Positions 2 to 43,217 are shown, counted from the stretch's first letter. The stretch is DNA of 64,000 bases from Myxococcota bacterium (GCA_044344255.1 JBIJDH010000003.1:128001-192000); one strand, 5' to 3'. Translations and numbers: made by a program. The notes: a model not told the origin generated them from the letters alone.

Positions 2-784
2 GAGTTCATCTTCTTCGTTGACCTCACCTTCACGGCGCACAAGAAGCAGACCCTCGAGTACCTCGACGTCATCGGGCAGCACGACATCGGCTGGACCTGC
101 CTCACCCGCAACGCCGACGTCGACCTCGAGGTCACCACCCGAATGGGCGAGACGGGCTGCGACATCGGGCTGTTTGGCGTCGAGACGCTCACCCCCGAGG
201 TCTTGAAGGAGGCCCGGAAGGGTTCGACCGAGAACCTCGTCTTCCGCGCGATGCGCAACGCCGAAGAGGGCGGCATCCGCTACGGCGGCCTCACCATCGT
301 CGGCCTTCCGGGAGAGACGGAGGAGAGCCTCGACCATATGTGCGGCTGGGCTGAGGAGCACAACCACATCACCCGCGTGAAGTACCTCTCTGCCATGCCG
401 GGCACGACGGTCTATCGACAGGGCCTGGAGTCCGGGGTCATCCGCAGCGAGGTGGAGCACCTCCGCTGGCTGTCCGTCGAGCAGGCGCTGGAGCGCGACG
501 AGTTCCTCAACTACAACGGCCTGCCGGACGCCGTGATGCGTCGCGCTTACAAGCGCATCTACGACAGCTACTGCCCCGGTCCGGTGATGGACTTCAAACA
601 TTACCCGGAGCACTTCGCCTATTTCGATCCCGATCCGAACCCCGCCAAGCCTTGGCGCGCCAACTTCGCCTCCGCCGGCGCGCACCCCTTCCCGGGGAGC
701 GAGGAATTCCGCGGCCTGAAGCCAGCGAGCGAGGGGGTCACCCTCACGAACGTGGTCGCCAGCGAGTTCAACGCGCAGGTCTGA
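2..784 (+). CDS. B12-binding (class B-type) radical SAM protein, C-terminal part (5' end outside window)
   Basis: Frame is open from base 2 (EFIFFVDLTFTAHKKQTLEYLDVIGQHDIGWTCLTRNADVD...) into the 143..784 ORF. The FFVDLTF, GCxxxxFGVET and IVGLPGET...PGT motifs are typical of the TIM-barrel half of cobalamin-dependent radical SAM enzymes. CxxxCxxC and the B12 domain would lie upstream of the window. Confidence 0.75.
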   Translation, partial: EFIFFVDLTFTAHKKQTLEYLDVIGQHDIGWTCLTRNADVDLEVTTRMGETGCDIGLFGVETLTPEVLKEARKGSTENLVFRAMRNAEEGGIRYGGLTIVGLPGETEESLDHMCGWAEEHNHITRVKYLSAMPGTTVYRQGLESGVIRSEVEHLRWLSVEQALERDEFLNYNGLPDAVMRRAYKRIYDSYCPGPVMDFKHYPEHFAYFDPDPNPAKPWRANFASAGAHPFPGSEEFRGLKPASEGVTLTNVVASEFNAQV

Positions 785-797
785 GGCCCCGGCGCCC

Positions 798-1559
798 TCA
801 GCGGGTGGCGACCGCGACGCCGAAGAGCATTCGGTCGATGATCTGCCCGTCCCCTTGCTCCACGCCGTGGAGCGAGAGGAAGGCCGCGCTGCCCTTCGCA
901 TAGACCTGCCGGATGGCCTCGCGGGCGCTGTCCTCGATGGCCTTGTTGTCCGCCCAGGCGTCGACGTCTTCGACGCTCACGTAGTCCCGCACCTCCACGT
1001 GCTGGGCGCCGGCGTCGCGCAGGCGCGAGGCGAGAGACGCGCGGGTGTAGAAATTGCGGCGGGCCGGGTTTCGGAGGCGGAGCACCTCGAAGTACTCGCG
1101 GGCGTCCTCCTCGCCATAGGCGCAGAGGTTGACGATGACCACGCGACCCCCGGGCTTGACCACCCGGAGCATCTCGCGGAAGGCGGCGAGGTCGTCCATG
1201 AACTGGCTGCCCTGCCGGCAGACCACCGCGTCAAAGGTCGCCTCGGCGAAGGGCAAGCGCTCGGCGGGAGACTGGACGAGGACATCGACGTGCGGCCGAG
1301 CCTGCTCGAACATCGCAGGGGTGACGTCCAGGCCCGTGATGTGGGCCACCCGGCCTCGGAAGGCGCGAGAGACGAGGCCGGTGCCCACCGCGACGTCCAG
1401 CAGCCGGTCGGCCGGGGCAGGGGCCACCGCCGCGACCGTGGCCTCGGCGAGGGCGGGGTCGGTGCACCAACGGCTGGAGCGGTCATAGTGGCCGGCCCGC
1501 TTGGTGAAGTGCTCCAGGACAGCGTCGAGGGCAGGGGTCGCGGGGTCGGTGGGGCTCAT
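798..1559 (-). CDS. Class I SAM-dependent methyltransferase
   Basis: Start MSPTDP at 1559 overlaps the upstream stop (ATGA). Motif I LLDVAVGTG, acidic GLD, LPFAEATFDAVV and RVVKPGG. Confidence 0.9.
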   Translation of the reverse strand: MSPTDPATPALDAVLEHFTKRAGHYDRSSRWCTDPALAEATVAAVAPAPADRLLDVAVGTGLVSRAFRGRVAHITGLDVTPAMFEQARPHVDVLVQSPAERLPFAEATFDAVVCRQGSQFMDDLAAFREMLRVVKPGGRVVIVNLCAYGEEDAREYFEVLRLRNPARRNFYTRASLASRLRDAGAQHVEVRDYVSVEDVDAWADNKAIEDSAREAIRQVYAKGSAAFLSLHGVEQGDGQIIDRMLFGVAVATR

Positions 1560-3502
1560 CGGGGGCTCGGCTTGGTGGCGGAGAAGATGCACCAGCGCCA
1601 CTGGTCGCGGATGTGACCGGCGGCGGAGATCTCGAAGGGGTGGACCAGTCGGGCCTCGGCGGGCGCGTGGTGGTAGAGGTCGCGGATCTCGTGTCGCATG
1701 AGGTTCGGCGTCTCGTGCGTGTTGATCCAGAGGTCGATGTCCTCCCATTGGAAGACCTCGCGCATCACGATGTCGACGAAGCCGGCCTCTTCGAGGAGGC
1801 GGCGCATGTCGGCCTCCATCAGGTTGTTGAAGAAGAGGGGCTGCTTCTTCTTTACGACGCGGAAGAACCAAGCGGCGTCACCCTCGCCGTAGGGGACCAT
1901 CTGTCCGACGATGAACTGGCCGCCGGGCTTGAGCACCCGAAAGACCTCCGAGACCGGCTTCTCAGGGCGGGGCAGCAGGTGGAGCACCTCCCGGTTGCAG
2001 ACGATGTCGAACCGATCGGCGGGGAAGGGGATGTCATAGACGTCGCCCTGCACCACCTCGTCGAGGCGGGTGCGGGCGAGGGTGATCATCTCGGGGGTGA
2101 GATCGAGGCCGGTGATGTGGCCGACCCGGCCCCGGAAGGAGGCCCCCACGACGCCGCTGCCGCAGCAGACGTCGAGCACCTGCGCGTCCGGACCCTGCCG
2201 ACAGAGCTCGGCGTGGGTGGAGAGGATGGTGGGGTCGGTCAGCCAGCGGGCGCTGTCGTGCCAGTTCTTGGAGCGGATTCCGAACTGCTGCCGATAGACC
2301 TCCTTGGACACGATGCTGTCGACGGTGCGGTAGCGAGCGCGCTCGCTCGCCCGCCGCGCCGCCGAGCGGGCTCGCCCGGCCTCGAGCGCCTTGCCGACGA
2401 TGGTGTTGCGGAGCGCCGGATCGGCGGAGAGGCGCTCCCGGAGGGCCGCGGAGATCACCGCCTCGACGGCGCGGGTGGCGGAGCGCGACGTGAGGACCGT
2501 CTTCGTCTGTCCTTCGAATTCAGGCTCGCTCATGCGCACGCTCAGCACGGCGACGAGGCCCTCGCGGACGTCGTATCCGGCGATGTGCTCACCGTTGGCC
2601 TCGTTGAGGAGGCCGGCCGCAGCCGCCGCCTCGTTCACGGCGCGGGTGAGCGCCGCCCGGAGGCCCTCCACGTGGGTGCCGCCCTGGGTGGTGCCGATGC
2701 TGTTGACATAAGAGAGCAGCTCTTCGCTGTAGTCGTGGGTCCACTGCAGCGCGGCCTCCACTTCGAGGCCCTCGAAGCGGCCCCGCAGGTGGAGCGGGGA
2801 GGGGTGCGCCGGGACTCGCTGTGCGGCGAGGTGGGCCACGAAGCCGGCGATGCCGGTCTCGAACCGATAGACGGCCTCGTCGGCCCCGGGGGTGCGCAGC
2901 GAGACGCGGAGCCCGGGGTGCAGATAGGCCTGCTCCTGGACGTATCGGGTGAGCGTCTCGACATCGAGGCCGATGCCCTCGGTGAAGATGGCGGGGTCTG
3001 GCCGGAAGCGGACCTGGGTGCCGCGGCGGTCGGCCTCCGGCGCCGGGGTGGAGGCCCCGAGCACGCGGCCCTGGGCGCAGCGGAGCTCGTGGCGGAGGCC
3101 CGCGCGCCAGACGGTCAACGTCAGGGACGCGGAGAGGGCGTTGACGCAGGTGAGGCCGACGCCGTGGAGGCCGCCGGTCACCCCGTAGGCGCCGGACTGG
3201 AACTTCCCGCCCGCGTGGAGCTCGGTGACGACGACCTCGAGGGTGGGGCGGCCGCTCTGCGGGTGCGGCTCGGTGGGGATGCCGCGCCCGTCATCTTCTA
3301 CGGTGACCGTGCCATCGTCGTCCACGACGACGGAGATCGCGGTGCACGAGCCGGTGAGGGCCTCGTCCACCGCATTTTGTACGACCTCCATCACGAGGTG
3401 GAAGACGCCGTCGGGGCCGGTGGAGCCCACGTACATGGCCGGGCGGCGGCGGACGGCCTCGAGACCGGGGAGAATGACGATGGAGTCAGCGTCGTAGCGC
3501 AT
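1556..3502 (-). CDS. Fusion: GyrB/ParE-type GHKL ATPase + transducer domain (about aa 1-392) joined to a class I SAM methyltransferase (about aa 393-648); no TOPRIM domain
   Basis: Start MRYDADSIVILPGLEAVRRRPAMYVG at 3502 (TGATG overlap). GyrB motifs EVVQNAVDE, DDGRGIP, LHAGGKF, GGLHGVG, GGTH and FEGQTK, followed by VLDVCCGSG, GLD and RVLKPGG of a methyltransferase. The upstream part of the 1189-aa ORF-track entry is a spurious extension. Confidence 0.92.
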   Translation of the reverse strand: MRYDADSIVILPGLEAVRRRPAMYVGSTGPDGVFHLVMEVVQNAVDEALTGSCTAISVVVDDDGTVTVEDDGRGIPTEPHPQSGRPTLEVVVTELHAGGKFQSGAYGVTGGLHGVGLTCVNALSASLTLTVWRAGLRHELRCAQGRVLGASTPAPEADRRGTQVRFRPDPAIFTEGIGLDVETLTRYVQEQAYLHPGLRVSLRTPGADEAVYRFETGIAGFVAHLAAQRVPAHPSPLHLRGRFEGLEVEAALQWTHDYSEELLSYVNSIGTTQGGTHVEGLRAALTRAVNEAAAAAGLLNEANGEHIAGYDVREGLVAVLSVRMSEPEFEGQTKTVLTSRSATRAVEAVISAALRERLSADPALRNTIVGKALEAGRARSAARRASERARYRTVDSIVSKEVYRQQFGIRSKNWHDSARWLTDPTILSTHAELCRQGPDAQVLDVCCGSGVVGASFRGRVGHITGLDLTPEMITLARTRLDEVVQGDVYDIPFPADRFDIVCNREVLHLLPRPEKPVSEVFRVLKPGGQFIVGQMVPYGEGDAAWFFRVVKKKQPLFFNNLMEADMRRLLEEAGFVDIVMREVFQWEDIDLWINTHETPNLMRHEIRDLYHHAPAEARLVHPFEISAAGHIRDQWRWCIFSATKPSPR

Positions 3503-4014
3503 CAACCCTCCACGGCGACAGGAGGGCTGAGGCGAGGCAGGTGCGCGCGGCGGCTGTGCGCCACCGACTCGAACCAGGAGGCGATGTCGGGGAAACCCTC
3601 GGCCGCCGCGGTGCGGGCGTACTCGGGGAGGTGCTCTTGGAGCTCGAGGGAGGTCGCGGCGTGCAGCGCCGCGAGGTTCCACGCGGTCTCGCCGATGGCC
3701 CGGTTGGTGAGCGGGTCGCCCACGCGACGGAGGAAGTCGAGGTGACCGCTGGCGATGAGCTCGACCGTCTCCGCCATCTCGCGGAGCGCGGTCGCGACGG
3801 TGGGGTGGCCCTCGAGCTCGGCGAGCCGCGCGAAGCTCACCAGAAGCCGGGCCGCGGCGGCGTCCCGGATGAAGGCCTCGCGGAGGTGCTCGTGCGTGCG
3901 CGTGCCGAAGAGGTCGGTCAGGCCGGAGGTCGGGGCACCGGGGCCGCCCGAGGCCTCCGGGCCGGCCGTCGGGAGCCCGGGTGCGGGAGGGGAGGGGAAG
4001 ATCGCGGGTGGCAT
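3502..4014 (-). CDS. Rubrerythrin-like (ferritin-fold) protein with degenerate di-iron ligands
   Basis: GTRTHEHLREAF...AELEGH...GHLDFLRRVGDPLT...IGET..NL...YARTAAAEGFPDIASWFE resembles short rubrerythrins. Start could be 4014 (ATG) or 4023 (GTG). Confidence 0.8.
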   Translation of the reverse strand: MPPAIFPSPPAPGLPTAGPEASGGPGAPTSGLTDLFGTRTHEHLREAFIRDAAAARLLVSFARLAELEGHPTVATALREMAETVELIASGHLDFLRRVGDPLTNRAIGETAWNLAALHAATSLELQEHLPEYARTAAAEGFPDIASWFESVAHSRRAHLPRLSPPVAVEG

Positions 4015-4023
4015 CCGCCCCAC

Positions 4024-4944
4024 CTACTCGGCGAGGTCGCCCTCGTCGACCATTGGGGAGGGGGCATTCCGTCCTTGAGGACGATCTCGGTCGACGCCCC
4101 GCGCATCGACCTTGTCCCGCCAGCTCCCCCAGTGGGGGCCATCCCCTTCGAAACGATCTCTGGGCGCGTCGGGACCAAGCAGGGCCCGGAGCTCGCGACG
4201 CCCTTCCAGTCGATTGGAGTGGTACCGAAGCTGCGTGGCGGAGTAACGGTGCGCGGCCCCCTCCGGGCAGGCGAGGCGCGCCTCGCAGGTCGAGGCGCAG
4301 CGCGGGGACTCCCGGTGGAAGTCGACGCAGCGGTCGACATTCCAGCGTCCCTCCGGGAAGGCGTCGCCCGGGCAGGCGCGCGTACAGGGGGCGGGGCAGG
4401 CCAGGCAGGGCGCGGCGAGGGCGCTCGGGTCTTCGGCCGCCGGGGCGCCTGGGCGGCGAGCGTAGGCGCCGAAGGTGGCGGTGTCGTCTGCTGCGGCTTC
4501 GAGGAAGCAGGCGGCGCGGAGCCCGATCCAGGGGCCGTAGGCGGGGTGGAGCAGCAGGCCGAGCCGGCTCTGGGCGCCGAGGCCGGCGAGGCCCGCCAGC
4601 AGTCGGAAGTCGATGTGCAGGTCGGCCTCCGCGCTCGCCCAGAACCACCGGCGGGGGCCCGCCCCGAGGGCGTGGTCGGCGGTGGCGATGGTGCGGCGGA
4701 CGAAGGCGTCGAGCGGGTGCGGCTCCTCGGTGAGCGAGGTCGGGCGGGCGGCGAGCTCCGCGAGGAGGGCCGTCCACAGCGCGCCGCCGCCGTTGGCGAC
4801 GACGAGGATCGAGCGGGCGCCGGGCTGGAGGGCCGACGATCGGCGGCTCGGCAGGGCGACCGCGTCCCAGTCGGAGACCGCGGCGACCGCGAGCAGGTTG
4901 AGGCCGGCGGGGAGGACAGATCGTTGAAAGGCGTCGAGGTCCAT
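4024..4944 (-). CDS. QueG/CblC(MMACHC)-like protein with C-terminal Fe-S cysteine cluster
   Basis: LAGLG-x-SRLGLLLHPAYGPWIGLRA motif of the QueG/MMACHC-like fold. C-terminal CxxCxxxCxxxCP...CxxxCxARxACP. Confidence 0.7.
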   Translation of the reverse strand: MDLDAFQRSVLPAGLNLLAVAAVSDWDAVALPSRRSSALQPGARSILVVANGGGALWTALLAELAARPTSLTEEPHPLDAFVRRTIATADHALGAGPRRWFWASAEADLHIDFRLLAGLAGLGAQSRLGLLLHPAYGPWIGLRAACFLEAAADDTATFGAYARRPGAPAAEDPSALAAPCLACPAPCTRACPGDAFPEGRWNVDRCVDFHRESPRCASTCEARLACPEGAAHRYSATQLRYHSNRLEGRRELRALLGPDAPRDRFEGDGPHWGSWRDKVDARGVDRDRPQGRNAPSPMVDEGDLAE

Positions 4945-5039
4945 GCGGTCGGTTATCTCGCTCGCCCCGGGGCGCAGCGACCGCTGAGCTCGGCGAGGCA
5001 GCCGGTAGAGCCTGACCGATGGAGCCTGACCCGCAGACG

Positions 5040-6101
5040 ATGACCCCCGACCCCATCCTCATCGTCGGGACCGAGCGGAGCGGCTCCAACCTGCTCCGGC
5101 TGGTGCTGAACAGCCACTCCCGCATCCAAGTGCCGCATCCACCGCACCTCGTCCGCTACTTCGCGCCGATCATCGCCGATTATGGTGATCTCTCCCAGGA
5201 CGAGAACCTGCTCCGGCTGGCCGAAGACGCCGTCTCTCTCGTGAGCGGGCACATCTATCGGTGGGAGCACCGGCTCGATCCCCGGGCGGTGGCGGCGCTG
5301 GCCGAGCCGCGTGACCTCCTCGGGGTCTACTTCGCCGTGATGGAGCTCGATCGGCGGGCCTCCGGCAAGGCGCGCTCGGCCTGTAAGAGCACCTTCATGG
5401 TGCATCACATCGACACGGTGCGGCGGGCCCGCCCGGGGGCGCGCTTCCTCTTCCTCCACCGCGACCCGCGCGACGTGGCGGCCAGCGCCCGGCGCAGCGT
5501 CTTCTCTACCTTTCACCCATGGTATACGGCAAACCTCTGGCGGGAGGAGCAGGCCCTCGGCCTCCGCGCGCTGGGCGCCCTCCCCGCAGGGGTCATCCTC
5601 CCCGTCGCCTACGAGGCCCTCGTGGCCGCGCCGGAGCGGGAGCTCCGCCGGATCTGTGACTTCCTCGGTGAGGCCTTCGAGCCGGCGATGCTGCGGCACG
5701 CCGAGACCGCGGAGGCCCAGAAGAGCGCTGGCCTCGCCGAGTCCTGGGCGCGGACCGGGGAGCCGATCAGCGCGGCCTCCGTCTCGCGCTACCGGGCCGA
5801 TCTGAGCGAGCGGGAGATCGGCCTCGTCGAGTATGTCACCCGCCACGAGCTGCTCGCCCTCGGCTATGTGCCGGAGGTGGCGGCCCCGGCTCCGCCCTCG
5901 GCGGTGGAGCTGGCGCGCTTCGCGGTCGAGGAGCGCGCCGCGGAGCTCCGGGTCGAGCTGCGCTCCCTCCGGAAGGACGACAACGTGGCCGCGCGATGGA
6001 GGCGCGGCGCCTGGCTCAAGCTCCTCCGCTGGCGCGCGGCGCTGCGGGGCCGATCGACGCCCCGTGGCGCGTCGCCTGGGGCCCCGGGCGGCCCGGCGTG
6101 A
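5040..6101 (+). CDS. Sulfotransferase family protein
   Basis: 5'-PSB loop IVGTERSGSNLL, then KST, FLFLHRDPRDVAAS (3'-PB) and YEALVAAPERELRRICDFLG. Alternative start 5019. Confidence 0.9.
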   Translation: MTPDPILIVGTERSGSNLLRLVLNSHSRIQVPHPPHLVRYFAPIIADYGDLSQDENLLRLAEDAVSLVSGHIYRWEHRLDPRAVAALAEPRDLLGVYFAVMELDRRASGKARSACKSTFMVHHIDTVRRARPGARFLFLHRDPRDVAASARRSVFSTFHPWYTANLWREEQALGLRALGALPAGVILPVAYEALVAAPERELRRICDFLGEAFEPAMLRHAETAEAQKSAGLAESWARTGEPISAASVSRYRADLSEREIGLVEYVTRHELLALGYVPEVAAPAPPSAVELARFAVEERAAELRVELRSLRKDDNVAARWRRGAWLKLLRWRAALRGRSTPRGASPGAPGGPA

Positions 6102-7444
6102 GCGCCGACGCCACAGCCCGGGACACGCTCCAGCGCAGGCTCCACGCCCTCGAGGCGGACGCGGCCCTGCCCGCCCTCCCCGATGAGCCCCTCCCCGACG
6201 AGGCCCTCCGCGATCTCGTCGTGATCCTGTCGAGCTCGCGCGGCGGATCGAGCATCCTCGCCGAGGCCCTCCGCCGGCAGACCGGGCTCCTGCACTTCCG
6301 GGCCGAGGTCAACCCCTTCTTCGTGATGGCCGGCCTGAGCTGCGGGCAAGGCGGCGCCCGCTCGGACGCCCTCGGCGAGGCGGACCTCCAGCGCGCCCCC
6401 GAGGTGCGTGCCCTGCGCCGCGCCCTGCTCGCCGACATCGGCCGACCGCGAAGCACCCTGCCCGACGCCGCGGCCCGGCGGCGATACGGCCTCGATCTGG
6501 CGAGGCGCTTCACCCTGCAGTGGCCGACCCTCGAGCTCGAGCTCGAAGGTGTGCACGCGGCCCTCGAGCGGGCGCTCGACGCGGCGGCCCGGGCTCAGCG
6601 GGGGGGCGACGGGGGTGGCGAGAGGGGGGGCGAGGTCGACCTCTCCGATCCGCGCCTCGTCGTCGCTCTCGTCATCCGGGAGCTGCGCGGCCAGGGCCTC
6701 CCCATCCATCCATACGCCTACGACATCGACCCTGGGCTCCTCCGCGCCCTGTTCCCCGGTGTGCTGCCGCGCTTCGAGCCCGAGGGGCCGATCATCGAGG
6801 AGCCGCCCTACGTCGCGATCTCGCCCTGGGCCCCGGCGACCGCCGAGGAGCTCCAGCGCCTGCCCGTGGTGATGAAGACGCCGAGCAATGTCTACCGGCT
6901 CCCCTTCCTGGCGGGGCTCTTCCCGGAGGCCCGGCTGCGACTGCTCCACCTCCGGCGAAACGTAGCCTCGAGCGTCAACGGGCTCCTCGACGGCTGGGGC
7001 CACCCGGGCTTCCACAGCCATCGCCTGGGCGGGCCCGGCGGCGCGGAGGGTTGGTGGAAGTTCGATCTGCCCCCCGGCTGGGAGGCCTGGGTCGACGCGC
7101 CGCCCGGCCTTCGCTGCGCCTGGCAGTGGCGGTCGGCCCACCGCGCCGCGCTCGAATTTTTGCGCCAACGGCCCGACCTGCCGCGCTTCGCCCTCCGCTT
7201 CGAAGACCTGCTCCGGGGCGGCGAGGTCGAGGCGGCCGCGGTGGAGGCGCTCGCGGGCTGGCTGGGCGCCCCCCTCTCACCCGGCCTGCTCGACGGGGTC
7301 CCCGCGGTGATGGCGACCGCGCCGCCCCGCCGCCGTCGCTGGTTCGCCCGCGCGGCCGAGCTCGGTCCGGTGCTCGAAGACCCTGACAACATCCGCATGA
7401 TGGAGGAGCTTGGTTATGAGTCGGAGCTCACTACCTGGCTTTAG
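6098..7444 (+). CDS. Sulfotransferase-like protein with a large internal insertion
   Basis: GTG start overlaps the upstream stop (GTGA). VILSSSRGGSSIL PSB-like loop, VMKTPSN, LFPEARLRLLHLRRN and LRFEDLL. Confidence 0.8.
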   Translation: MSADATARDTLQRRLHALEADAALPALPDEPLPDEALRDLVVILSSSRGGSSILAEALRRQTGLLHFRAEVNPFFVMAGLSCGQGGARSDALGEADLQRAPEVRALRRALLADIGRPRSTLPDAAARRRYGLDLARRFTLQWPTLELELEGVHAALERALDAAARAQRGGDGGGERGGEVDLSDPRLVVALVIRELRGQGLPIHPYAYDIDPGLLRALFPGVLPRFEPEGPIIEEPPYVAISPWAPATAEELQRLPVVMKTPSNVYRLPFLAGLFPEARLRLLHLRRNVASSVNGLLDGWGHPGFHSHRLGGPGGAEGWWKFDLPPGWEAWVDAPPGLRCAWQWRSAHRAALEFLRQRPDLPRFALRFEDLLRGGEVEAAAVEALAGWLGAPLSPGLLDGVPAVMATAPPRRRRWFARAAELGPVLEDPDNIRMMEELGYESELTTWL

Positions 7445-8369
7445 GCACGAGGCCCCGAGCCACTTGGGCGGCCTGGGCTGGCGGCCTCGGACCCTCTCCC
7501 ACCGCGAGGAGATGGGCGCGCTCTGGACCGCCTCGGGCCTCTCCTCGCCGGTGGCCCCGCTCCAGGAGGTGGTGCTCGCCCTGCCCGGCCTCGAGCAGCG
7601 GTACTCCGAGGATCCCGCGCTGTGGTTGATGGAGGAGCGGCCGGAGCTCGATCGGATGCGGGGAGAGTTCGAGGGGCTGGTGAAGGCCTACCAAGCCGAG
7701 GGGGTGGTGGTGCAGGTCCACCGCCCACGCCAGCCGACGCCGAACCACATCTTCTGCTGCGACCTCTTCTTCGCCACCCCTGAGGGCATCATCCTCTCGC
7801 GGATGGCCTCCGAGCAGCGGGCCGGGGAGGAGCGGGAGATCGCGGCCTTCTTCGCCCGGATGGGCGTCCCCATCCTGCTCACGCCGCGGGGGCACGCCAC
7901 CTTTGAGGGGGCGGACGCGATGTGGCTCGACGCCCGCACGGTGCTCATCGGCATCGGAAACCGGACCAACGAGGCGGCGGTGGCCCAGCTCCGCCCCCTG
8001 CTCGAGTCGATGGGGGTGGAGGTCCGGGTCTGCACGCTCACGAGCGGGGTCCAGCACCTGCTCGGCGCCTTCAACCCCGTCGACGAGCGGGTCGCGTGTG
8101 TGCTCGCCGACGAGCTCAGCCCCTCCCTCCGTCGCGCGCTGTCCGGCTGGCGCCTGATCCTCCTGCCCAGCACCCCCGAGACCCGCCGTGGCCGGGCGAT
8201 GAACTTCGTCACGCTGTCCCCGCGCCGCGTCCTCATGCCGGCGGGGAGCCCCAACACACGCGCCCTCTACGAGTCGCAGGGCATCACGGTGATCGAGGCC
8301 CCGATCGACCAGTACCTGCGCGCGGCCGGCGGCATGGGCTGCCTCACCGGCGTCCTGCGCCGCGGCTGA
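7416..8369 (+). CDS. Amidinotransferase / arginine deiminase / DDAH (pentein) family protein
   Basis: IFCCD, SRMASEQRAGE, FEGAD, GNRTN, QHL, MNFV and C-terminal GGMGCLT with the catalytic Cys. Overlaps the upstream gene end. Confidence 0.88.
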   Translation: MSRSSLPGFRHEAPSHLGGLGWRPRTLSHREEMGALWTASGLSSPVAPLQEVVLALPGLEQRYSEDPALWLMEERPELDRMRGEFEGLVKAYQAEGVVVQVHRPRQPTPNHIFCCDLFFATPEGIILSRMASEQRAGEEREIAAFFARMGVPILLTPRGHATFEGADAMWLDARTVLIGIGNRTNEAAVAQLRPLLESMGVEVRVCTLTSGVQHLLGAFNPVDERVACVLADELSPSLRRALSGWRLILLPSTPETRRGRAMNFVTLSPRRVLMPAGSPNTRALYESQGITVIEAPIDQYLRAAGGMGCLTGVLRRG

Positions 8370-12948: not shown

Positions 12949-13106
12949 CGGATCTCCGTGGGGGCCGGGGCGCGTCCGAGGGGAGGGGGCGGGCGGTCCG
13001 GGTCGGCCGGCCACCTATCCAACCCGCGCCGGGGTAGCCTACTTGGATGTCCCGCCCTCTCCTGCGCTCGAAGCTCCTTCGCTCGTCCTGGGCGCTGTGT
13101 CCGTGG

Positions 13107-15248
13107 ATGGCGCTGCTCGCGGCGCTCGCCCTCGCTCCGGACGGATCGCAGGCCGCCGAGCCCACCGAGCCCGCCGAGCCCGCCGAGCCCGCCGAGCCCG
13201 CCGAGCCCGTCGCCAAGGGGCGGATCGGCGTGCAGCTCGAGGCCATCGGTCAGGGCATGCTCGCCGCCGCGGTGGTGCCCGGCTCGGGCGCCGATCGGGC
13301 CGGGCTCCGCCCCGGCGACACCCTCGTGAAGGTGGGAGACCAGCCGATCGCGGAGAGCGTAGACGGCGCCCGCCAGCAGCTCATGGGGCCCCCCGGCAGC
13401 CGGGTGTCGGTGACGGTGCGGCGCTCGCTCGGCCGTGGGGAGGAGCACCTGGAGATCGAGCGCGGCGTCCCCCCGCCGGCCGCCAAGGGTCCCCCGCTGC
13501 CCGCGGTGGTGCTCGCCTTCCGGAGCGCGGTCCTCCGAGGGAGCAAGGCGGACCTCAAGGCGGCCACCGACGCCCTCGTGCAGGCCGACTTCGGCGGCCT
13601 CGAGCCCGTCGTCGCCGTGGGCTCGGTGCTGCGCTCGGCGCTCGGGCGTGATCCGAAGTCGCTCGGGCCCGCCTTCGATCGCCTTCGCCCCTCTGCCGGC
13701 CAGGATCCGGCGCTGGCCGCCCTCCTCGCCGAGGTGGCCGATAAGATTGGGCGCCCGGAGGAGGGGCTGTCGCTGCGCCGGGCTGCGCTCGCGGCGGCGC
13801 CCCCCGACGTGCTCCTCTCTGACAACACCACGCGCGGCGACCTGGGCGGCAACGAGCGGAGCCGCCTTCGTGTGGCAGAGGCCGACTGGGAGGCGGGGGC
13901 GCGCCGCGCGGCGATCGAGGCGGTGCGGAGCCTCTCGCTCAGCCGGGAGGTGGGGCCGCTCGGCGCCACCCTCGGCCTCGCCCCCGAGGCCCCGCGGGAG
14001 CCCTGGCGGGCGGCCCTGCCGCCGGTCGAGGAGGTCTCTCTCCGCCTGCTCGACGGCGCGGAGTGGCGCTTGTCGGAGCAGCGCGGGCGGGTCGTGCTGC
14101 TCACCTTCTGGGCCACCTGGTGCGGGCCCTGCCGACAGGAGCTGCCCGAGCTCGTGGCCCTGCGGCGAGAGCTCGGTCCGAAGGGCTTCGACGTGGTCGC
14201 CGTGAGCATCGACGGGGCGAAGACGGTGGGGGAGCTGCCCGAGGCGGCGCGGAAGCTGGGGCTGGACTTTCCGGTGGCCCACTCTCCGGCGGTGGCGAGC
14301 CGGTTTGGGGTCTCGGCGATCCCCGCCCTCCGCTTGATCGGCCGCGACGGGACCCTCGCCTATTCGGCCAAGGGCTACTCGGCGGACGCCCTCCGACGCC
14401 TGCGGGAGGCCGTCGAGCTCGCGCTGCGGGAAGACGGGCAGGGCGGCGGGGTGCTCGGCCGGCCGCACGGCGTGGCGGAGGCCCGCCTCCTCGGCCTCGC
14501 GCCCCTCACCAGCGGGACGGGGGTGGTGGCGGCCGGAGATCGGCTCGCGGTCGGGATCCCGGGAGCCAGCCCTTGGGTGGAGGGCCCCGCCGGGGCCTCG
14601 GTGCCCGACCTCAGCGAGGGCGCGGGCTCACCCGATGAGCGCCTCGCCTGGCAAGGCGGGCCGGTCGCCGTCGACCCCGGGCGCTACCTCCTGCGCGCCT
14701 GGGACGACGACGGAGCGCTCCGCTGGACCACCACCCTGGCCTCGGCCGCGGTCGACGTGGTCACGCTCGGCGAGCAGATCCTCGTCGCGGCAGAGGGGGG
14801 CACCTACGTCTTCGACGCGGAGGGGCGCCTGCTCCAGGAGCTGCCGGGCCGCTACATCGACCTCGCGGCCGCGAGCGGAGGCGGTGCCTGGGCCATCGAC
14901 GGGGAGGCCCGCTATCGCCTGAGGGCGGGCCCGGCGGGGGTGGAGGTCGAGCCCGCCGGAGCCGCCCGGGGCGCCGCGCGGGTGGCCGAGCGCGGGGAGC
15001 TCGGGGCGGCGATCGCGGTGGACCTCGTCTCCGGCCGCTTCGGACCCGGGGGCGCCCCGCGTGTGGTGGCGACCCGCACCGATCACCGCCTGATCGGCCT
15101 CGACGGCGCCGGCGCCCCGGCCTTCTCCCTCGAGCTGCGGCAGACCGCCCGCCTCGCCGCGGCTGACCTGGACGGCGATGGCCAGGACGAGCTCATCGCG
15201 GTGATTCGCGGGGTCGGCGTCGCGCGCATCCACCTCCGGCTCCCTTAA
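13107..15248 (+). CDS. Exported multidomain protein: PDZ + helical region + TlpA-like thioredoxin + beta-propeller/FG-GAP-like C-terminus
   Basis: Signal peptide. PDZ GRIGVQL...PGSGADRAGLRPGD. FWATWCGPC...AIPA. C-terminal DLDGDGQDEL. Start could be 13047. Confidence 0.8.
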   Translation: MALLAALALAPDGSQAAEPTEPAEPAEPAEPAEPVAKGRIGVQLEAIGQGMLAAAVVPGSGADRAGLRPGDTLVKVGDQPIAESVDGARQQLMGPPGSRVSVTVRRSLGRGEEHLEIERGVPPPAAKGPPLPAVVLAFRSAVLRGSKADLKAATDALVQADFGGLEPVVAVGSVLRSALGRDPKSLGPAFDRLRPSAGQDPALAALLAEVADKIGRPEEGLSLRRAALAAAPPDVLLSDNTTRGDLGGNERSRLRVAEADWEAGARRAAIEAVRSLSLSREVGPLGATLGLAPEAPREPWRAALPPVEEVSLRLLDGAEWRLSEQRGRVVLLTFWATWCGPCRQELPELVALRRELGPKGFDVVAVSIDGAKTVGELPEAARKLGLDFPVAHSPAVASRFGVSAIPALRLIGRDGTLAYSAKGYSADALRRLREAVELALREDGQGGGVLGRPHGVAEARLLGLAPLTSGTGVVAAGDRLAVGIPGASPWVEGPAGASVPDLSEGAGSPDERLAWQGGPVAVDPGRYLLRAWDDDGALRWTTTLASAAVDVVTLGEQILVAAEGGTYVFDAEGRLLQELPGRYIDLAAASGGGAWAIDGEARYRLRAGPAGVEVEPAGAARGAARVAERGELGAAIAVDLVSGRFGPGGAPRVVATRTDHRLIGLDGAGAPAFSLELRQTARLAAADLDGDGQDELIAVIRGVGVARIHLRLP
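13155..13208 (+). repeat. Tandem 9-bp repeat (GCCGAGCCC, about 6 copies) encoding an AEP linker
   Basis: Directly visible; one copy is ACCGAGCCC. Confidence 0.85.
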
Positions 15249-15511
15249 GAACGAACTCGAGACCGATTGCCGAAGTCCGGTTGCCTGGATCTGACAGATG
15301 AGCTGACCCTACGCAGCGCCGGGATACAAGAGGCTGGATAGGTGGACGGTGACGCGGGGTCCGGGCGGCTGGCGCCTCCGTCACCGTCGAAGGGTCGGGT
15401 GATCGAAGGCTCCGCGGTCGTCTGGCGGGGGACCGGCGGCGCAAGGCTTCGTGGACGTACCGCGGTGCGGTATACCTTTGTCGATATCGCTCGTTGGAGA
15501 GTGGAGGCATC

Positions 15512-16846
15512 TTGGCGGAGCAGCGAGTCAGTGAGACAAAGGTCGGGGAGACAAAGGTCGGGGAGACAAAGAACCCCGGTGAGGCGCTCGGGTCGAAGCA
15601 GCTCTCTCAGCGAGCTGCAGCGACGCGGGATCTGTCGATCATGGGCACCCCGGAGGTCGTCCCCCGCCTCGCCCTGATGGCCCAGCAGGATCCGTCCCCC
15701 GCCGTTCGGCTCGGCTGTGCGGGGGCCGCGGCCGACATCCTCAGCCGATATCGGGTCGGCACCTCCCGCCTGGCGCTCCCCGACGACGAGCGCCAGCGGT
15801 TGTTCACCCTCTTCAAGGCGATTGACCCCGGAGTGAACCCAGGGTTGTTCGGCATGCTCGCCACCCTGGACACCCCGGAGTGTGCGCCCCGCATCCTCTC
15901 CGGCTTTCGAGACCCTCGGGGCGGCGTGCGGGTCGGGGCCGCGGTGGGCCTGCTGCGCCTCTGCACCTCCGCCGCCCACGACGGAGACAGCGTCTTGGAG
16001 CAGCTCGTGGTGAGCGCCCTCGACGACAAGCGGCACAAGCCCGACGCCCTCGCTGAGGTCGCGCGGGTCTCGGCCGCCGCCGGCTATCGCTCGGCCTTGC
16101 CTCGGCTCCGCAGCCTCGGCCTCGAGGGTGCACACGGGGACACGATCCTGGCGGCGGTGGCCACCCTCGAGCGGGCGGAGGATCTCTCGGCCTGGACGGG
16201 CGCGTGGGTCTCCGACGGGCGGGACGCGGGCGAGGTGGGGGAGCCCGGCGAGCAGCCCAGCGCCTTCCTGATCGTCGCCGAGGGGGGCGGGGCGCTCTTC
16301 GCGCCGCCGGGGGCGCCCCTCCGCGCGGAGGCGCAGTTCGACATCGAAGGGGCGCGACGAATGCTCCTCCGCCGCTCGGGGGCCGCGCAGGCCGAGCCGG
16401 CCCTCCAGTGGCGGGGCGCCACCTGGACTCCGGCCGATGAGGTCGCGCTGGTCGAGGTCATCGACCGGACCCTCCGCCTCGAGGAGCTTGATGGGCGCGC
16501 GCCGCCCGCCCCGAGCCCGGAGGCGCTTCTCCTGCTCCAGCGCCTCGGGCCGGTGCTCTCCGACAACGGCCTCGGCCGCCGCACCCACGCCCTGCTCGAG
16601 CTCCGCGCCGGGCAGGCGGAGGCGGCCCTCCGCAGCCTGAAGGAGGCCGTGGAGCTCAAAAAGACCCCCGCAGATGCCTGGTACTTCCTCGGTGAGCTGC
16701 TCTTCGCCGGGGGAGATCCCACGGGAGCGGCGGAGGCCTGGGAGGCGACGATCCGTCGCGCCCGCCGCAAGCGGGACTGGTTTGCCCTCCGGGCGCGCGC
16801 GGCCCTGGGCTCGGAAGAAGGAGGGGAGTCCCATGAACCGTCTTGA
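15512..16846 (+). CDS. HEAT-repeat / TPR protein
   Basis: TTG start preceded by GGAGG. HEAT-like DPSPAVRLGCA and DPRGGVRVGAA. C-terminal TPR ADAWYFLGELLF. Confidence 0.75.
   Translation: MAEQRVSETKVGETKVGETKNPGEALGSKQLSQRAAATRDLSIMGTPEVVPRLALMAQQDPSPAVRLGCAGAAADILSRYRVGTSRLALPDDERQRLFTLFKAIDPGVNPGLFGMLATLDTPECAPRILSGFRDPRGGVRVGAAVGLLRLCTSAAHDGDSVLEQLVVSALDDKRHKPDALAEVARVSAAAGYRSALPRLRSLGLEGAHGDTILAAVATLERAEDLSAWTGAWVSDGRDAGEVGEPGEQPSAFLIVAEGGGALFAPPGAPLRAEAQFDIEGARRMLLRRSGAAQAEPALQWRGATWTPADEVALVEVIDRTLRLEELDGRAPPAPSPEALLLLQRLGPVLSDNGLGRRTHALLELRAGQAEAALRSLKEAVELKKTPADAWYFLGELLFAGGDPTGAAEAWEATIRRARRKRDWFALRARAALGSEEGGESHEPS
15533..15571 (+). repeat. Tandem 15-bp repeat (GAGACAAAGGTCGGG, about 2.6 copies) encoding ETKVG
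   Basis: Directly visible at the 5' end of the gene. Confidence 0.85.
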
Positions 16847-41597: not shown

Positions 41598-43217
41598 ATG
41601 AGCACCCATCCCTGCGTCGTCACCATCGACCACACGAGCAAGCCGCGTGTCCTCTTCAGCGGGGACCAGCTCGTTGAGGTCGACCTCCCCGTCGGCACCC
41701 GGGTCATCTACGCGAAGAAGCCGATGGCGGGGCTGCCTGATCCCGACGCTGCGGTCCGCTACGCGCTGAGCCACCCGTTGGAGAGCGCGCCGCTGTACGC
41801 GAAGCTGCGCCCCGGCATGCGCGTGACGGTGGCGATCGACGACATCTCGATGCCCTTGCCGCCGATGCGGGGGCCCGACTGTCGCCAGCGCGTGCTCGAG
41901 CCGGTCATCAAGATGCTCGATGATTACGGCGTCGACGACGTCGAGCTCATCATCGCCACGGCCTTTCACCGGCCGATGACCGGCGACGAGATCAAGCACA
42001 TCGTGGGCGAGAAGGTCTTCAAGCGCTTCTGGCCGGCCAAGCTCTACAACCACGACGCCGAGCGGCCGGGCGGTCTGACCTACCTTGGCACGACCGAGGA
42101 TGGCATCGAGGTCGAGATCAACGCCCGCGCGGCGAGCTCCGACCTCGTCATCTACGTGAACCTCACCTTCGTCTCGATGAACGGCGGCCACAAGTCGATG
42201 GGCACCGGCCTCGTGGGCTACCGCACGCTGCGCGGCCACCACACGCCGATGTCGATCCGGGACACGGGCTCCTACATGGAGCCCGCCCGCTCGGCGCTGA
42301 GCGCGAAGATGGAGCGGGTGGGCCAGCTCATCGAGAGCAAGGTCGATGTGTTCCACATCGAGACCACCGTGAACAACCGGATGTTCGACGCCCCGCTCGA
42401 CATCCTGGCCAAGAACGAAGACGAGCTGTCCGCCGCCGAGGAGAAGGGCCTGAAGGCGCTCGTCAAGACGTTGAAGCTGCTGCCCCAGCCGGCTCGCCAG
42501 GCGATCTTCGACAAGGTGCCGGCGCCCTACGAGATGATCGCGGTCTACGCGGGCAAGTGTGAGCCCGTCCACGCCGCTATCCTCGAGAAGGTGCACCAGC
42601 AGCTCCTCGTGCCGGTGCGGGGGCAGAGCGACATCGTCATCTTCCCCATCCCCTTCATCAGCCCCTACAACGTGGGCGCCTTCTTGAACCCGCTCCTCGT
42701 GAGCGTGATGGCCGAGGGCTACCTCCACAACCTGCACCGGGGCGCGCCGCTGCTCAAGAAGGGGGGCACGATGATCATCCTGCACCCCTGCACGGACAAG
42801 TTCGATCGAGACCAGCACCCCGCCTATGTGGAGTTCTTCCACAAGTTCCTCACCCAGACCCGCGACGCGATGCAGCTCCACAAGCGCTTCGAGCGGGACT
42901 TCGCGCGGGACCCGGCGTACATCCAGCTCTATCGTACGGGTCGGGCCTACCATCCCGCCCACCCCTTCTACATGTGGTACTGGGGTGAGAACGGCCGCCA
43001 GCACCGCGGGCGGGTCATCGTCGTCGGGGCGGACAACGAGTACGTACCCGGAATCCTCGGCTATGAGACGGCACGCACGATGAGCGAGGCCCTCCGCATG
43101 GCCCGAGAGACGGCGCCGGCGGATCCCTCGATCACCTGCTTCCGCATCTGCCCGCTGATGATGGCAGATGTCACCGCGGAGGAGCTGCCCGCCGCGGTCA
43201 CCCAGGTGACCCCGTGA
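41598..43217 (+). CDS. Lactate racemase (LarA/DUF2088) domain protein, ElbC-like
   Basis: ALSHPL, VTVAIDDIS, IIATAFHRPMT, YNHDA and GGHKS match the LarA N-terminal fold. Directly upstream of the elbD-like gene. Confidence 0.8.
   Translation: MSTHPCVVTIDHTSKPRVLFSGDQLVEVDLPVGTRVIYAKKPMAGLPDPDAAVRYALSHPLESAPLYAKLRPGMRVTVAIDDISMPLPPMRGPDCRQRVLEPVIKMLDDYGVDDVELIIATAFHRPMTGDEIKHIVGEKVFKRFWPAKLYNHDAERPGGLTYLGTTEDGIEVEINARAASSDLVIYVNLTFVSMNGGHKSMGTGLVGYRTLRGHHTPMSIRDTGSYMEPARSALSAKMERVGQLIESKVDVFHIETTVNNRMFDAPLDILAKNEDELSAAEEKGLKALVKTLKLLPQPARQAIFDKVPAPYEMIAVYAGKCEPVHAAILEKVHQQLLVPVRGQSDIVIFPIPFISPYNVGAFLNPLLVSVMAEGYLHNLHRGAPLLKKGGTMIILHPCTDKFDRDQHPAYVEFFHKFLTQTRDAMQLHKRFERDFARDPAYIQLYRTGRAYHPAHPFYMWYWGENGRQHRGRVIVVGADNEYVPGILGYETARTMSEALRMARETAPADPSITCFRICPLMMADVTAEELPAAVTQVTP

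Follow-up and report, generated by a model that had tools for sequence, protein, structure and literature searches.

The rare sulfamate group of two Streptomyces nucleoside antibiotics depends, in the accessible published accounts, on a protein of the NucP/AcmP type. In Streptomyces calvus, knockouts of nucG, nucI, nucJ, nucK, nucL, nucN, nucO, nucP, and nucQ are reported to abolish sulfamylation but not fluorination, and NucP is described there as a GyrB ATPase-type and methyltransferase protein (PMC10946740, accessible text). The corresponding gene table of the acm cluster gives a sulfatase of 480 aa, two B12/radical SAM proteins of 453 and 557 aa, a sulfotransferase of 356 aa, a methyltransferase of 250 aa, an amidinotransferase of 319 aa, AcmO of 444 aa, AcmP of 658 aa, and a rubrerythrin of 155 aa (PMC4257720, accessible text). 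As far as the available descriptions go, the known sulfamate products carry no methyl group and act through aminoacyl-tRNA synthetases, not gyrase. The ribose C5'-O bond is retained in the sulfamylated metabolite, since 18O and deuterium of labelled glycerol are kept at C-5' of F-Met II (PMC10616807, accessible text); the 5'-oxygen is thus the ribose's own, and the chemistry takes place at sulfur on this existing oxygen. The same label leads us to reject, for the known pathway, a scheme with SAM as an adenosyl donor and sulfamate attacking C5'. A literature search for the architecture or for later enzymology, mostly within journals open without subscription, returned only the 2014 and 2023 papers naming AcmP and NucP.

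We analyzed a window of 64,000 nucleotides from a Myxococcota genome that carries a gene of the same architecture. Translation of the minus strand, the preliminary description having named no strand, yields one protein with a single terminal stop; its ATG overlaps by one base the TGA of the gene before it. The mechanical open reading frame extends to position 5125, and the actual start is at 3502. All motifs that had been listed for this frame were found in the translation (YDADSI, GLEAVRRRPAMYVG, EVVQN, DDGRGIP, GGLHGVG, EGQTK, and ARSAARRASERARYR). Pfam places HATPase_c at residues 30-170, DNA_gyraseB at 217-387 (E value 1.8e-47), and Methyltransf_11 at 443-532 (2.9e-22, above the cut-off), and Toprim is absent from the protein among the 10 families listed. 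The NCBIfam gyrB model TIGR01059 aligns residues 3-393 with model positions 1-393 of 639; the score of 423 bits (E value 1.8e-126 over the common part) lies below the cut-off of 882, and the remainder of the full-length model, with the TOPRIM domain and C-terminal tail, is unmatched. The domain junction falls at about residues 385-397, which form the only segment with pLDDT below 50 in a full-length AlphaFold2 model of mean pLDDT 89.2. These results bear out the claim that an unbroken frame joins a 43-kDa-type GyrB clamp to a complete class I methyltransferase. The features of the locus are collected in the table.

Table. Features of the fusion locus, with coordinates counted from the first letter of the 64,000-nucleotide window
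Feature	Coordinates	Strand	Basis	Remarks
Sulfatase-family gene, 492 aa	outside window, just upstream of the B12-radical SAM gene			
B12-binding radical SAM gene, 3' part, NucJ/AcmJ type	2..784	+		whole gene 575 aa, starts 944 bases before window
Stand-alone methyltransferase, NucL/AcmL type	798..1559	-	Pfam, NCBIfam	paralogue of fusion C-terminal domain
Fusion gene, NucP/AcmP-type GyrB-N::methyltransferase	1556..3502	-	translation, Pfam, NCBIfam, AlphaFold2	648 aa + stop
Residues 398-648, predicted class I SAM methyltransferase	1559..2311	-	Methyltransf_11, model	N-terminal helical lid and C-terminal extension
Residues 385-397, low-confidence linker	2312..2350	-	pLDDT	where GyrB would go on into TOPRIM
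Residues 217-384, GyrB transducer	2351..2854	-	DNA_gyraseB, conservation	QTK loop (Q332, K334) and long C-terminal helix
Residues 1-216, N-terminal arm and GHKL ATPase domain	2855..3502	-	HATPase_c, conservation, fold match	
Rubrerythrin-like protein without rubredoxin domain, NucQ/AcmQ type	3502..4023	-	Pfam Rubrerythrin 5.5e-5, NCBIfam 3.2e-11	
306-aa protein with two 4Fe-4S ferredoxin-type cysteine clusters	4024..4944	-	ORF	
Sulfotransferase, NucK/AcmK type	5019..6101	+	Sulfotransfer_3 3.7e-34	in 39/80 loci
Weak sulfotransferase-like protein, NucO/AcmO type	6098..7444	+	Sulfotransfer_3 1.7e-4, below cut-off	in 43/80 loci
Guanidino-group-modifying enzyme (ADI/DDAH/amidinotransferase fold), NucN/AcmN type	7416..8369	+	Pfam, NCBIfam	in 41/80 loci

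The fusion is a genuine gene and no assembly error. Other genomes contributed 80 loci for comparison: 75 of them have the frame intact and continuous, and the GyrB part directly precedes the methyltransferase part in 77, the remaining three being broken by contig ends. The same set of Pfam domains occurs in at least 120 protein clusters. The junction is spanned by contigs from all four other sequencing runs, each run belonging to a different study, and three of these contigs show no differing letter; no RNA run was among those listed. Host gyrB, which the genome has elsewhere in addition to gyrA and parE/parC, shares only 51% identity with the ATPase part. We found no evidence favouring an assembly chimera or a recent accidental fusion of host gyrB with an adjoining methyltransferase gene; the intact frames and protein clusters of other genomes, the bridged junction, the divergence from host gyrB, and the position of the ATPase part outside the GyrB/ParE group in the tree described below refute that explanation. 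The absence of gyrA and parC from the window also holds, as the only two DNA_topoisoIV matches genome-wide lie on contigs C70 and C59; none of the six Toprim matches of the genome lies on C52, the contig of the window. These data support the proposal that the fusion cannot serve as a topoisomerase subunit.

The residues that bind and hydrolyze ATP in DNA gyrase B and its dimerisation arm are present in the fusion: E39, N43, D70, G72-G74, K100, the ATP lid at 110-116, and T162 form the ATP site. Among 77 family members, D70, G72, G74, K100, G111, G114, G116, T162, Q332, and K334 are kept in all, E39 and N43 in 76 (the remaining alignment row has a gap), and the arm Tyr3 in 70. In contrast, the histidine backing the catalytic glutamate is kept in only 32 of the 77 and the first glycine of the ATP lid in 39, and 21 of the 75 columns conserved in GyrB/ParE are relaxed in the fusion family. 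Such relaxation of GyrB-invariant positions suggests that ATP turnover by the fusion may be slower or differently regulated than in GyrB. The modelled fold matches the M. tuberculosis GyrB ATPase with AMPPNP (3zkb) with a target-normalised TM score of 0.95 and an rmsd of 1.7-1.9 A. A tree built from 44 fusions together with 19 GyrB/ParE sequences from 11 of the same genomes separates all fusions from GyrB/ParE by a single branch with SH-aLRT support of 100; on this tree the gyrase-derived part has a single origin. Judged by sequence, the N-terminal half goes back to an ancient copy of the GyrB ATPase and transducer that has since evolved on its own, with the dimer-locking arm and all residues required for ATP binding and hydrolysis still in place. 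It diverges faster than the methyltransferase half (median identity 48.9% versus 64.9%), the latter being the more similar in 72 of 72 comparisons. Conservation of the ATP-site and arm residues throughout the family makes the suggested coupling of an ATP-gated dimer to a methyltransferase a reasonable reading of the alignment.

The C-terminal half is a predicted SAM methyltransferase of the small-molecule type and is more strongly conserved than the N-terminal half. Its model (pLDDT 89.7) has a Rossmann-type fold with the glycine-rich SAM motif of class I enzymes; across 116 sequences, neither the motif DVCCGSG nor the GLD with the acidic residue that follows strand 2 varies, and the mean column identity of the domain is 73% over 19 relatives. 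The nearest solved folds, BH2331 (1vl5) and YcgJ (1xxl), are also its best sequence matches (E values 2.7e-23 and 1.7e-18; 21-26% identity) and superimpose with target-normalised TM scores of 0.85-0.86, the C-terminal helical extension included. Both are Methyltransf_11-type structural-genomics proteins, uncharacterised and without a known substrate, and are therefore uninformative on function; in contrast to them, the fusion family has invariant basic and aromatic residues of its own. Further similar folds and sequences, MitM, RebM, and phosphoethanolamine N-methyltransferase, are small-molecule enzymes. No DNA methylase occurs among the matches listed, and chains of the BUD23/18S rRNA guanine-N7 methyltransferase match weakly near the bottom of the list (3e-6 to 7e-6).

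The neighbouring genes reproduce the sulfamate cassette. Protein sizes at this locus, in the same order of kinds as in the acm table, are 492, 575, 360, 253, 317, 448, 648, and 173 aa, and all seven NucG/J/K/L/N/O and NucQ kinds lie within 12 kb of sequence. The ATG of the stand-alone methyltransferase overlaps the TGA of the fusion (ATGA), and the two methyltransferases are 32% identical. For the NucN-type enzyme, the best-scoring families are hydrolases that release ammonia or an amine (ADI 4.2e-18, dimethylargininase 5.2e-19). The start of the NucO/AcmO-type gene may be at 5996. No nucleoside-tailoring, export, or resistance gene was found next to the cassette, suggesting that the product need not be a nucleoside sulfamate; an APS kinase gene is located on another contig. 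The first gene of the four-gene minus-strand operon encodes the 306-aa Fe-S protein, which has no match in Pfam or NCBIfam and occurs near the fusion in only 10 of the 80 loci. Its identity with NucI/AcmI (302 aa, annotated as an "acylsulfatase"), considered because of the similar size, is not supported: tblastn gives no match (E value of 1e-3 or lower) in the three Streptomyces/Verrucosispora loci L136, L138, and L119.

The rubrerythrin-like gene adjoins the fusion gene, its stop sharing one base with the fusion start. It is located directly upstream of the fusion in 71 of the 80 loci and in all 36 loci whose flanks are complete. Of these 36, 33 also have the radical SAM gene, and in 32 loci that gene is the next one upstream of the rubrerythrin-like gene, in the same orientation, whereas the ADI and sulfotransferase genes are more loosely linked (22-25 of the 36). 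Complex models of the fusion with the rubrerythrin-like protein scored 0.65, 0.66, and 0.74 in three runs against 0.00 for the best of three controls, the score being the program's own confidence and no measurement. In calibration, 116 of 157 solved complexes attained the mark applied to such models, as did 2 of 215 mismatched pairs; these rates are only approximate here because our own alignments were used. The runs agree in at least half of the contacts and place the partner (pLDDT 75-78) on the methyltransferase domain. By hand count, three of its 15 contact residues (G143, D146, and W150) fall among its 15 invariant or nearly invariant positions, compared to about 1.3 expected; contacts on the methyltransferase domain are not enriched for conservation (6 of 19 conserved versus 42% of all domain positions).

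Based on architecture, length, neighbours, and named Streptomyces relatives, we conclude that the fusion is probably an orthologue of NucP/AcmP, with which it was compared by description, and an ATP-gated methyltransferase of the sulfamate pathway rather than a topoisomerase; to this explanation as a whole, orthology included, we assign a probability of about 80%. The fusion has a GHKL ATPase, a GyrB transducer, and a class I methyltransferase in about 650 aa without TOPRIM. It adjoins a small rubrerythrin-like gene without a rubredoxin domain and is clustered with a sulfatase, a B12-radical SAM enzyme, two sulfotransferase types, a methyltransferase, and an amidinotransferase fold, at sizes that fit the acm table. 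The same cassette surrounds fusions in named Streptomyces, Micromonospora, and Verrucosispora records, to which this protein is 45-47% identical in the GyrB part and 63-65% in the methyltransferase part. In the mechanism that we infer, ATP binding would close two GyrB halves into a dimer, and a swivel of the transducer helices would reposition the two methyltransferase domains hung on flexible linkers. Each of these domains may hold a rubrerythrin-like partner on its substrate face, as modelled, and the ATP-gated unit would perform one step in turning PAPS-derived sulfate and a nitrogen donor into O-SO2-NH2 on the nucleoside 5'-oxygen.

Other roles for the fusion were weighed against this ATP-gated methyltransferase. 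The cassette could instead form the S-N bond in the manner of an amidotransferase, the GyrB domain using ATP to phosphorylate a sulfate-ester oxygen or gating such an intermediate, the ADI/DDAH-fold enzyme freeing the nitrogen that displaces the activated oxygen, and the methyltransferase fold mainly holding a 5'-substituted adenosine. The GyrB-derived domain is the sole ATP-binding domain in the conserved cassette, the NucN-type neighbour resembles a nitrogen-releasing hydrolase, and both the retained C5'-O bond (PMC10616807, accessible text) and products described without a methyl group fit such chemistry. However, all residues that close the GyrB site round the hydrolytic water are kept, so that a bulky acceptor would hardly fit, the SAM-binding motifs are unbroken and strongly conserved, and the ADI and sulfotransferase genes follow the fusion less faithfully than the radical SAM gene does. 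To our knowledge, no GHL-type ATPase acts as a small-molecule kinase, and we consider this scheme unlikely. The triad of radical SAM, rubrerythrin-like, and fusion genes, the tightest in the cassette, would also suit an ATP-dependent activator, in which the clamp and SAM domain, with the rubrerythrin-like protein as electron carrier, both reduce and re-methylate the cobalamin of the neighbouring B12-radical SAM enzyme, as activators of corrinoid methyltransferases do. Such a role would account for the need for methyltransferases in making a product that has no methyl group, and NCBIfam returns CpaM matches for the fusion (2.5e-10) and its paralogue (9.5e-12); these matches are weak, far below the cut-off, and matched in strength by hits to many other methyltransferases of small molecules. 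Since B12-radical SAM methylases normally use SAM to load their cobalamin themselves, we regard reactivation as quite improbable.

Roles outside biosynthesis fare worse. The 43-kDa GyrB dimer of type IIA topoisomerases encloses a DNA segment, and the modelled fold is kept closely enough (rmsd 1.7-1.9 A) that the fusion dimer might capture a DNA or RNA duplex for methylation by its C-terminal domains, the link to sulfamate genes being regulatory or coincidental. This is very unlikely given the resemblance of the domain to small-molecule enzymes, with no DNA methylase among the matches listed, the strict association of the fusion with the cassette and its rubrerythrin-like gene across phyla, and the knockout phenotype reported as specific to sulfamylation (PMC10946740, accessible text). 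The preliminary description had also offered self-resistance, in which the ATP pocket binds a gyrase-ATPase inhibitor that is then methylated. Extra GyrB copies are resistance genes in aminocoumarin producers, and the pocket is intact. Nevertheless, no aminocoumarin-type or other gyrase-inhibitor pathway was found nearby, the modelled linker puts the two pockets on separate domains, the neighbours are sulfur- and nitrogen-handling enzymes, and the published phenotype is the loss of a biosynthetic step (PMC10946740, accessible text). Nothing was found in favour of inactivation itself, and we consider a decoy extremely unlikely.

At least 252 species-level genomes carry the cassette, and they span several phyla, including Myxococcota, Elusimicrobiota, Acidobacteriota, Bdellovibrionota, Actinomycetota, and others. 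This spread, together with the single well-supported branch, the invariant ATP site, and the modelled partner placement, is new relative to print. A farther-reaching proposal makes the GyrB-derived clamp the energy-coupling part of a new kind of S-N bond-forming machine, with composite methyltransferase/degenerate-rubrerythrin sites working alongside the B12-radical SAM enzyme and an ADI-fold nitrogen donor, and takes sulfamates for a widespread environmental weapon; we hold it as speculative and rather doubtful. If true, and given how many genomes have the cassette on its own, sulfamoyl nucleosides or another sulfamate would be such a weapon and no mere oddity of two Streptomyces antibiotics. 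The fusion is the oddest of the nine gene products needed for sulfamylation, and it offers experimental handles: hundreds of natural variants, never-varying ATP-site residues, a flexible linker showing where the domains meet, a predicted surface on which the rubrerythrin-like protein would dock, and a compact stand-alone non-actinomycete cassette that could be expressed whole.

Compared with known systems, the locus is closest to the nucleocidin cluster of Streptomyces calvus and S. virens (NucP) and the ascamycin cluster of Streptomyces sp. JCM9888 (AcmP), which have the same kinds of neighbours. The preliminary description did not recognise the architecture from described proteins; it had in fact been published for NucP and AcmP (PMC10946740 and PMC4257720, accessible text). 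The host here is a freshwater Myxococcota genome rather than an actinomycete, and in contrast to those clusters the cassette lacks fluorination, alanylation, nucleoside-tailoring, and linked PAPS genes. Its operon is headed by the 306-aa Fe-S protein and, unlike the NucP cluster, has no recognised NucI counterpart. The 43-kDa fragment of GyrB (E. coli 1ei1 and 4wub; M. tuberculosis 3zkb) has the same fold (target-normalised TM scores of 0.94-0.96) and the catalytic Glu/Asn, ATP lid, QTK lysine, and N-terminal arm in common with the fusion; that fragment is a laboratory product, whereas the fusion is a natural full-length protein without the TOPRIM domain, tail, or GyrA partner of GyrB. GHKL-plus-transducer ATPases have been reused outside topoisomerases in MutL, MORC, and Hsp90, in which the ATP-driven dimerising clamp drives another C-terminal effector. 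These are distant GHKL families, whereas the fusion is a true GyrB derivative by its NCBIfam gyrB match and a clean natural case of a topoisomerase ATP gate reused beyond DNA strand passage.

Translation of the fusion gene gave 648 residues with one terminal stop, and every motif listed in the preliminary description was found in it. In a mechanical ORF list the same frame was prolonged to 5125, the usual effect of a G+C content of 70%; the true start is the ATG at 3502, the A of which is the final base of the upstream gene's TGA. Pfam searches of the fusion detected two GyrB-type domains and a methyltransferase domain (Table) and no Toprim, and the NCBIfam gyrB model aligned residues 3-393 with model positions 1-393 of 639 (423 bits, cut-off 882). 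Thus, as proposed, the chain consists of the N-terminal "43-kDa" part of GyrB and a complete class I methyltransferase.

The genome (8.18 Mb, 83 contigs, 95% complete) also encodes a separate full-length gyrB, a check suggested earlier. It lies on contig C77, is 51% identical to the fusion across residues 3-393, and its 892-codon frame also contains a Toprim match a short way downstream. A parE-like gene beside a parC-type gene and a gyrA-type gene are located on two other contigs (C59 and C70, respectively); the window's contig has neither a Toprim nor a GyrA-type domain. At least 120 clusters in a large protein collection share the same three Pfam domains (54-73% identity to the query, 607-900 aa), under the source names "methyltransferase domain-containing protein" or "DNA gyrase subunit B". 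A methyltransferase-domain profile, run against one genome per species, yielded 252 stretches, and the best 80 of these were analyzed. The GyrB part directly precedes the methyltransferase part in 77 of the 80 loci, the remaining three ending at a contig edge; the frame is unbroken in 72, and in three more the sole "stop" is the natural gene end. Lake, freshwater, and river metagenomes (20 DNA runs in 15 studies, with 4 runs possibly the source) contain DNA nearly identical to window positions 1400-4100, and in all four non-source runs compared, from four studies, a contig bridges the domain junction. The contigs from runs X5, X9, and X10 have zero letters differing from the window. Thus, the junction is spanned outside the source assembly and the unbroken frame is common to other genomes, two of the points on which the preliminary description had made the reality of the gene depend, and we concluded that the fusion is neither an artefact nor a recent accident.

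The contig from the river run X12 is variant, differing from the window at 12 single bases over 2.2 kb, and the host organism seems to be widespread in fresh water. Two of the 80 loci carry damaged fusions, one with an in-frame stop within the GyrB part (L117:8864-9994) and one with a frameshift (L132:8820-10768), which could be pseudogenes or assembly errors.

Table. Features of the fusion, its neighboring genes, and the metagenomic contigs that bridge the domain junction, with the occurrence of each neighbor among related loci.
Feature	Position	Strand	Loci (of 80)	Full-flank loci (of 36)	Remark
Fe-S protein, 306 aa	4024-4944	-	10	5	Two ferredoxin-type cysteine clusters; no Pfam or NCBIfam match; first operon gene
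Rubrerythrin-like protein, 173 aa	3502-4023	-	71	36	No rubredoxin domain; begins directly after preceding stop
Fusion	1556-3502	-			Third operon gene
Paralogous methyltransferase, 253 aa	798-1559	-	49	26	ATG overlaps fusion's TGA
B12-binding radical SAM, 575 aa			56	33	Left side
Sulfatase family, 492 aa			35	22	Left side
Clear sulfotransferase, 360 aa			39	23	Right side
Weak sulfotransferase-like, 448-482 aa			43	25	Right side
ADI/DDAH/amidinotransferase fold, 317 aa			41	22	Right side
HATPase_c	Fusion residues 30-170				Pfam
DNA_gyraseB	Fusion residues 217-387				Pfam, E 1.8e-47
Methyltransf_11	Fusion residues 443-532				Pfam, E 2.9e-22
Bridging contig, X5	1529-2754
Bridging contig, X9	1937-3188
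Bridging contig, X10	1880-3178
Bridging contig, X12	1905-4100

The fusion belongs to a tightly packed minus-strand operon, in which the 253-aa methyltransferase is a paralogue of its C-terminal domain (32% identity). The left-side genes converge on the operon, the last 260 codons of the radical SAM gene lying within the window, and the right-side genes diverge from it. The weak sulfotransferase-like ORF starts at either 5996 (a ~100-base overlap with the preceding sulfotransferase) or 6098 (a 4-base overlap). Past 8.4 kb the genes are unrelated (e.g., prolyl oligopeptidase, tryptophan dioxygenase, TPR proteins, and an ABC exporter); the cassette in this organism is without tailoring genes, and an APS kinase is encoded elsewhere in the genome. 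Farther along the window (41598-48906, plus strand), a 1570-aa protein with the unusual domain order NAD_binding_4 reductase, AMP-binding, PP-binding carrier, and acyltransferase lies between a Lar_N-domain protein (41598-43217) and an NAD-dependent epimerase/dehydratase (47923-48906); this region resembles an assembly unit for lipids or small molecules, unrelated to the fusion.

Neighbors were counted by tblastn with the window's proteins against the 80 loci, many of which lie on short contigs, and separately in the 36 loci where each flank of the fusion is at least 9.5 kb long. The neighborhood is conserved, and its tightest unit is radical SAM, rubrerythrin-like protein, and fusion; the association is obligate for the degenerate rubrerythrin and near-obligate for the B12-radical SAM enzyme. 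A smaller set of 20 loci came from the same collection, partly from the same places, and is not independent of the 80. The 306-aa Fe-S protein may be a lineage-specific electron carrier of the cassette. In L051 and L075 (the same place) and in L080, the gene after the fusion is a second copy, closer to the fusion's own methyltransferase domain (40-43% identity) than to the usual stand-alone paralogue. The family is carried by 30 of 401 sampled genomes of the window's phylum, and record titles among the 252 stretches name Myxococcota, Elusimicrobia, Pyrinomonadaceae, Gemmatimonadota, Wallbacteria, Bdellovibrionota relatives, Desulfobulbia, and actinomycetes. Several metagenome-assembled records with the high-G+C cassette (L060, L092, and others) bear implausible titles (Klebsiella pneumoniae, Bifidobacterium breve, Enterobacterales, Rickettsiales), and title-based phylum counts should therefore be treated with care.

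The AlphaFold2 model of the fusion, built on 116 family members (mean pLDDT 89.2), combines a low pTM of 0.62 with a sole disordered stretch at residues 385-397, which means that a flexible linker joins two well-defined halves. Superposition of the N-terminal half on E. coli GyrB43 and on the AMPPNP complex of the M. tuberculosis GyrB ATPase gave a target-normalised TM of 0.94-0.96 (rmsd 1.7-1.9 Å). Modeled on its own (pLDDT 89.7), the C-terminal half is closest, among the matches listed, to the uncharacterised Bacillus proteins BH2331 and YcgJ, followed by small-molecule methyltransferases; nucleic-acid enzymes are represented among them only by BUD23/18S rRNA methyltransferase rows, which score weakly and come low in the sequence search.

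A tree of 44 fusions and 19 GyrB/ParE N-terminal halves was calculated by maximum likelihood (quick IQ-TREE search, LG+C20). The GyrB/ParE halves are from 11 fusion-carrying genomes (six Myxococcota and five reached via L138, L105, L119, L114, and L100); the fusions were drawn from 77 distinct ones by taking each that these genomes carry and alternate members of the remainder. All fusions fall on one side of a branch with SH-aLRT 100; since the tree is unrooted, this is compatible with one origin, which it does not date. The 19 topoisomerase subunits have 75 columns with at least 90% conservation, and in 54 of these the 77 fusions are conserved to the same degree. D70, G72, G74, K100, G111, G114, G116, T162, and, from the QTK motif, Q332 and K334 are present in all 77, the catalytic Glu E39 and the Mg-binding Asn N43 in 76 (the other row is a gap), and the arm tyrosine in 70. 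Relaxed positions include the His preceding the catalytic Glu (32/77), the Asp beside the Asn (Q in this protein), and the first lid glycine (39/77). The GyrB-type ATP site and dimerisation arm are under purifying selection. The SAM domain, of small-molecule type, is strongly constrained: it is more conserved than the GyrB part in all 72 proteins (median identity to the window 64.9% vs 48.9%), and away from the SAM motifs it has numerous basic and aromatic residues that do not vary.

The rubrerythrin-like protein was chosen for complex modeling because its gene accompanies the fusion (71/80 loci; 36/36 full-flank) and is translationally coupled to it. Three runs that folded the fusion (116-row alignment) with this partner (68-row alignment) scored 0.65, 0.66, and 0.74, against 0.00 for the highest of three controls; partner pLDDT was 75-78, and at least half of the contacts agree among runs. 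Among solved complexes 116 of 157 attain the tool's mark, compared with 2 of 215 mismatched pairs; both counts hold only roughly here because custom alignments were used. Predicted contacts involve residues 511-512, 537-562, and 601-616 of the methyltransferase domain and two partner helices, 66-70 and 143-160, which include the invariant G143 and W150 and the nearly invariant D146. We know of no solved complex of this kind, so the model's pass probably does not reflect a memorised structure. The model supports, and does not itself show, binding of the two proteins.

The family is reported to be required for O-SO2-NH2 formation from PAPS-derived sulfate (PMC10946740), and the ribose C5'-O bond is reported to be retained (PMC10616807). 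ATP binding would dimerise the N-terminal halves, the transducer helices would then shift the two methyltransferase-partner modules, and this movement could gate or drive one step of sulfamate assembly. Among three candidates for that step, we rank first a transient ("cryptic") methylation, for which an ATP-gated composite site would hold an anionic intermediate or cofactor. Ranked behind it is the activation of a sulfate oxygen at the expense of ATP, the ADI-fold enzyme providing the nitrogen, and the least favored is an ATP-dependent reductive re-methylation of the radical SAM enzyme's cobalamin. The product in this organism need not be a nucleoside sulfamate, the cassette being without tailoring genes.

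The architecture had been thought undescribed, which was not borne out, as NucP and AcmP are published (PMC10946740 and PMC4257720). Judged by architecture and gene context, the fusion is of the NucP/AcmP kind, and its architecture and genetic role are already in print; within the non-subscription literature covered, we found no paper assigning a reaction to NucP/AcmP. Work on Streptomyces calvus reports that deletion of nucI, G, J, K, L, N, O, Q, or P ends sulfamylation, and not fluorination, of nucleocidin metabolites, and terms NucQ a pseudo-rubrerythrin (Chembiochem 2023; PMC10946740). The ascamycin cluster comprises acmG (sulfatase, 480 aa), acmH (B12/radical SAM, 453 aa), acmI ("acylsulfatase", 302 aa), acmJ (Fe-S oxidoreductase, 557 aa), acmK (sulfotransferase, 356 aa), acmL (methyltransferase, 250 aa), acmN (amidinotransferase, 319 aa), acmO (hypothetical, 444 aa), acmP ("DNA topoisomerase II", 658 aa), and acmQ (rubrerythrin, 155 aa) (PLoS One 2014; PMC4257720). 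The window's gene set agrees with this published table in kinds and sizes. Among the 80 loci, records named as Streptomyces (four), Micromonospora, and Verrucosispora have the same cassette; their fusions share 45-47% identity with the window's in the GyrB part and 63-65% in the methyltransferase part. The 306-aa Fe-S protein had no match in three actinomycete loci, and a NucI counterpart was not identified. The S. amakusaensis locus (L138) additionally has an MFS transporter and, at 12962-15821, a DUF6027 gene (140 aa; AcmM has 142 aa) and a second, distant B12-radical SAM gene (607 aa, 25% identical to the window's); the window's cassette is without the latter two. The fusion is a good entry point to the unsolved enzymology of sulfamate formation, and what is new beyond the papers covered is the breadth of the family, the separate clade of its gyrase-derived half, the invariance of the ATP site, and the predicted docking of the rubrerythrin-like partner.
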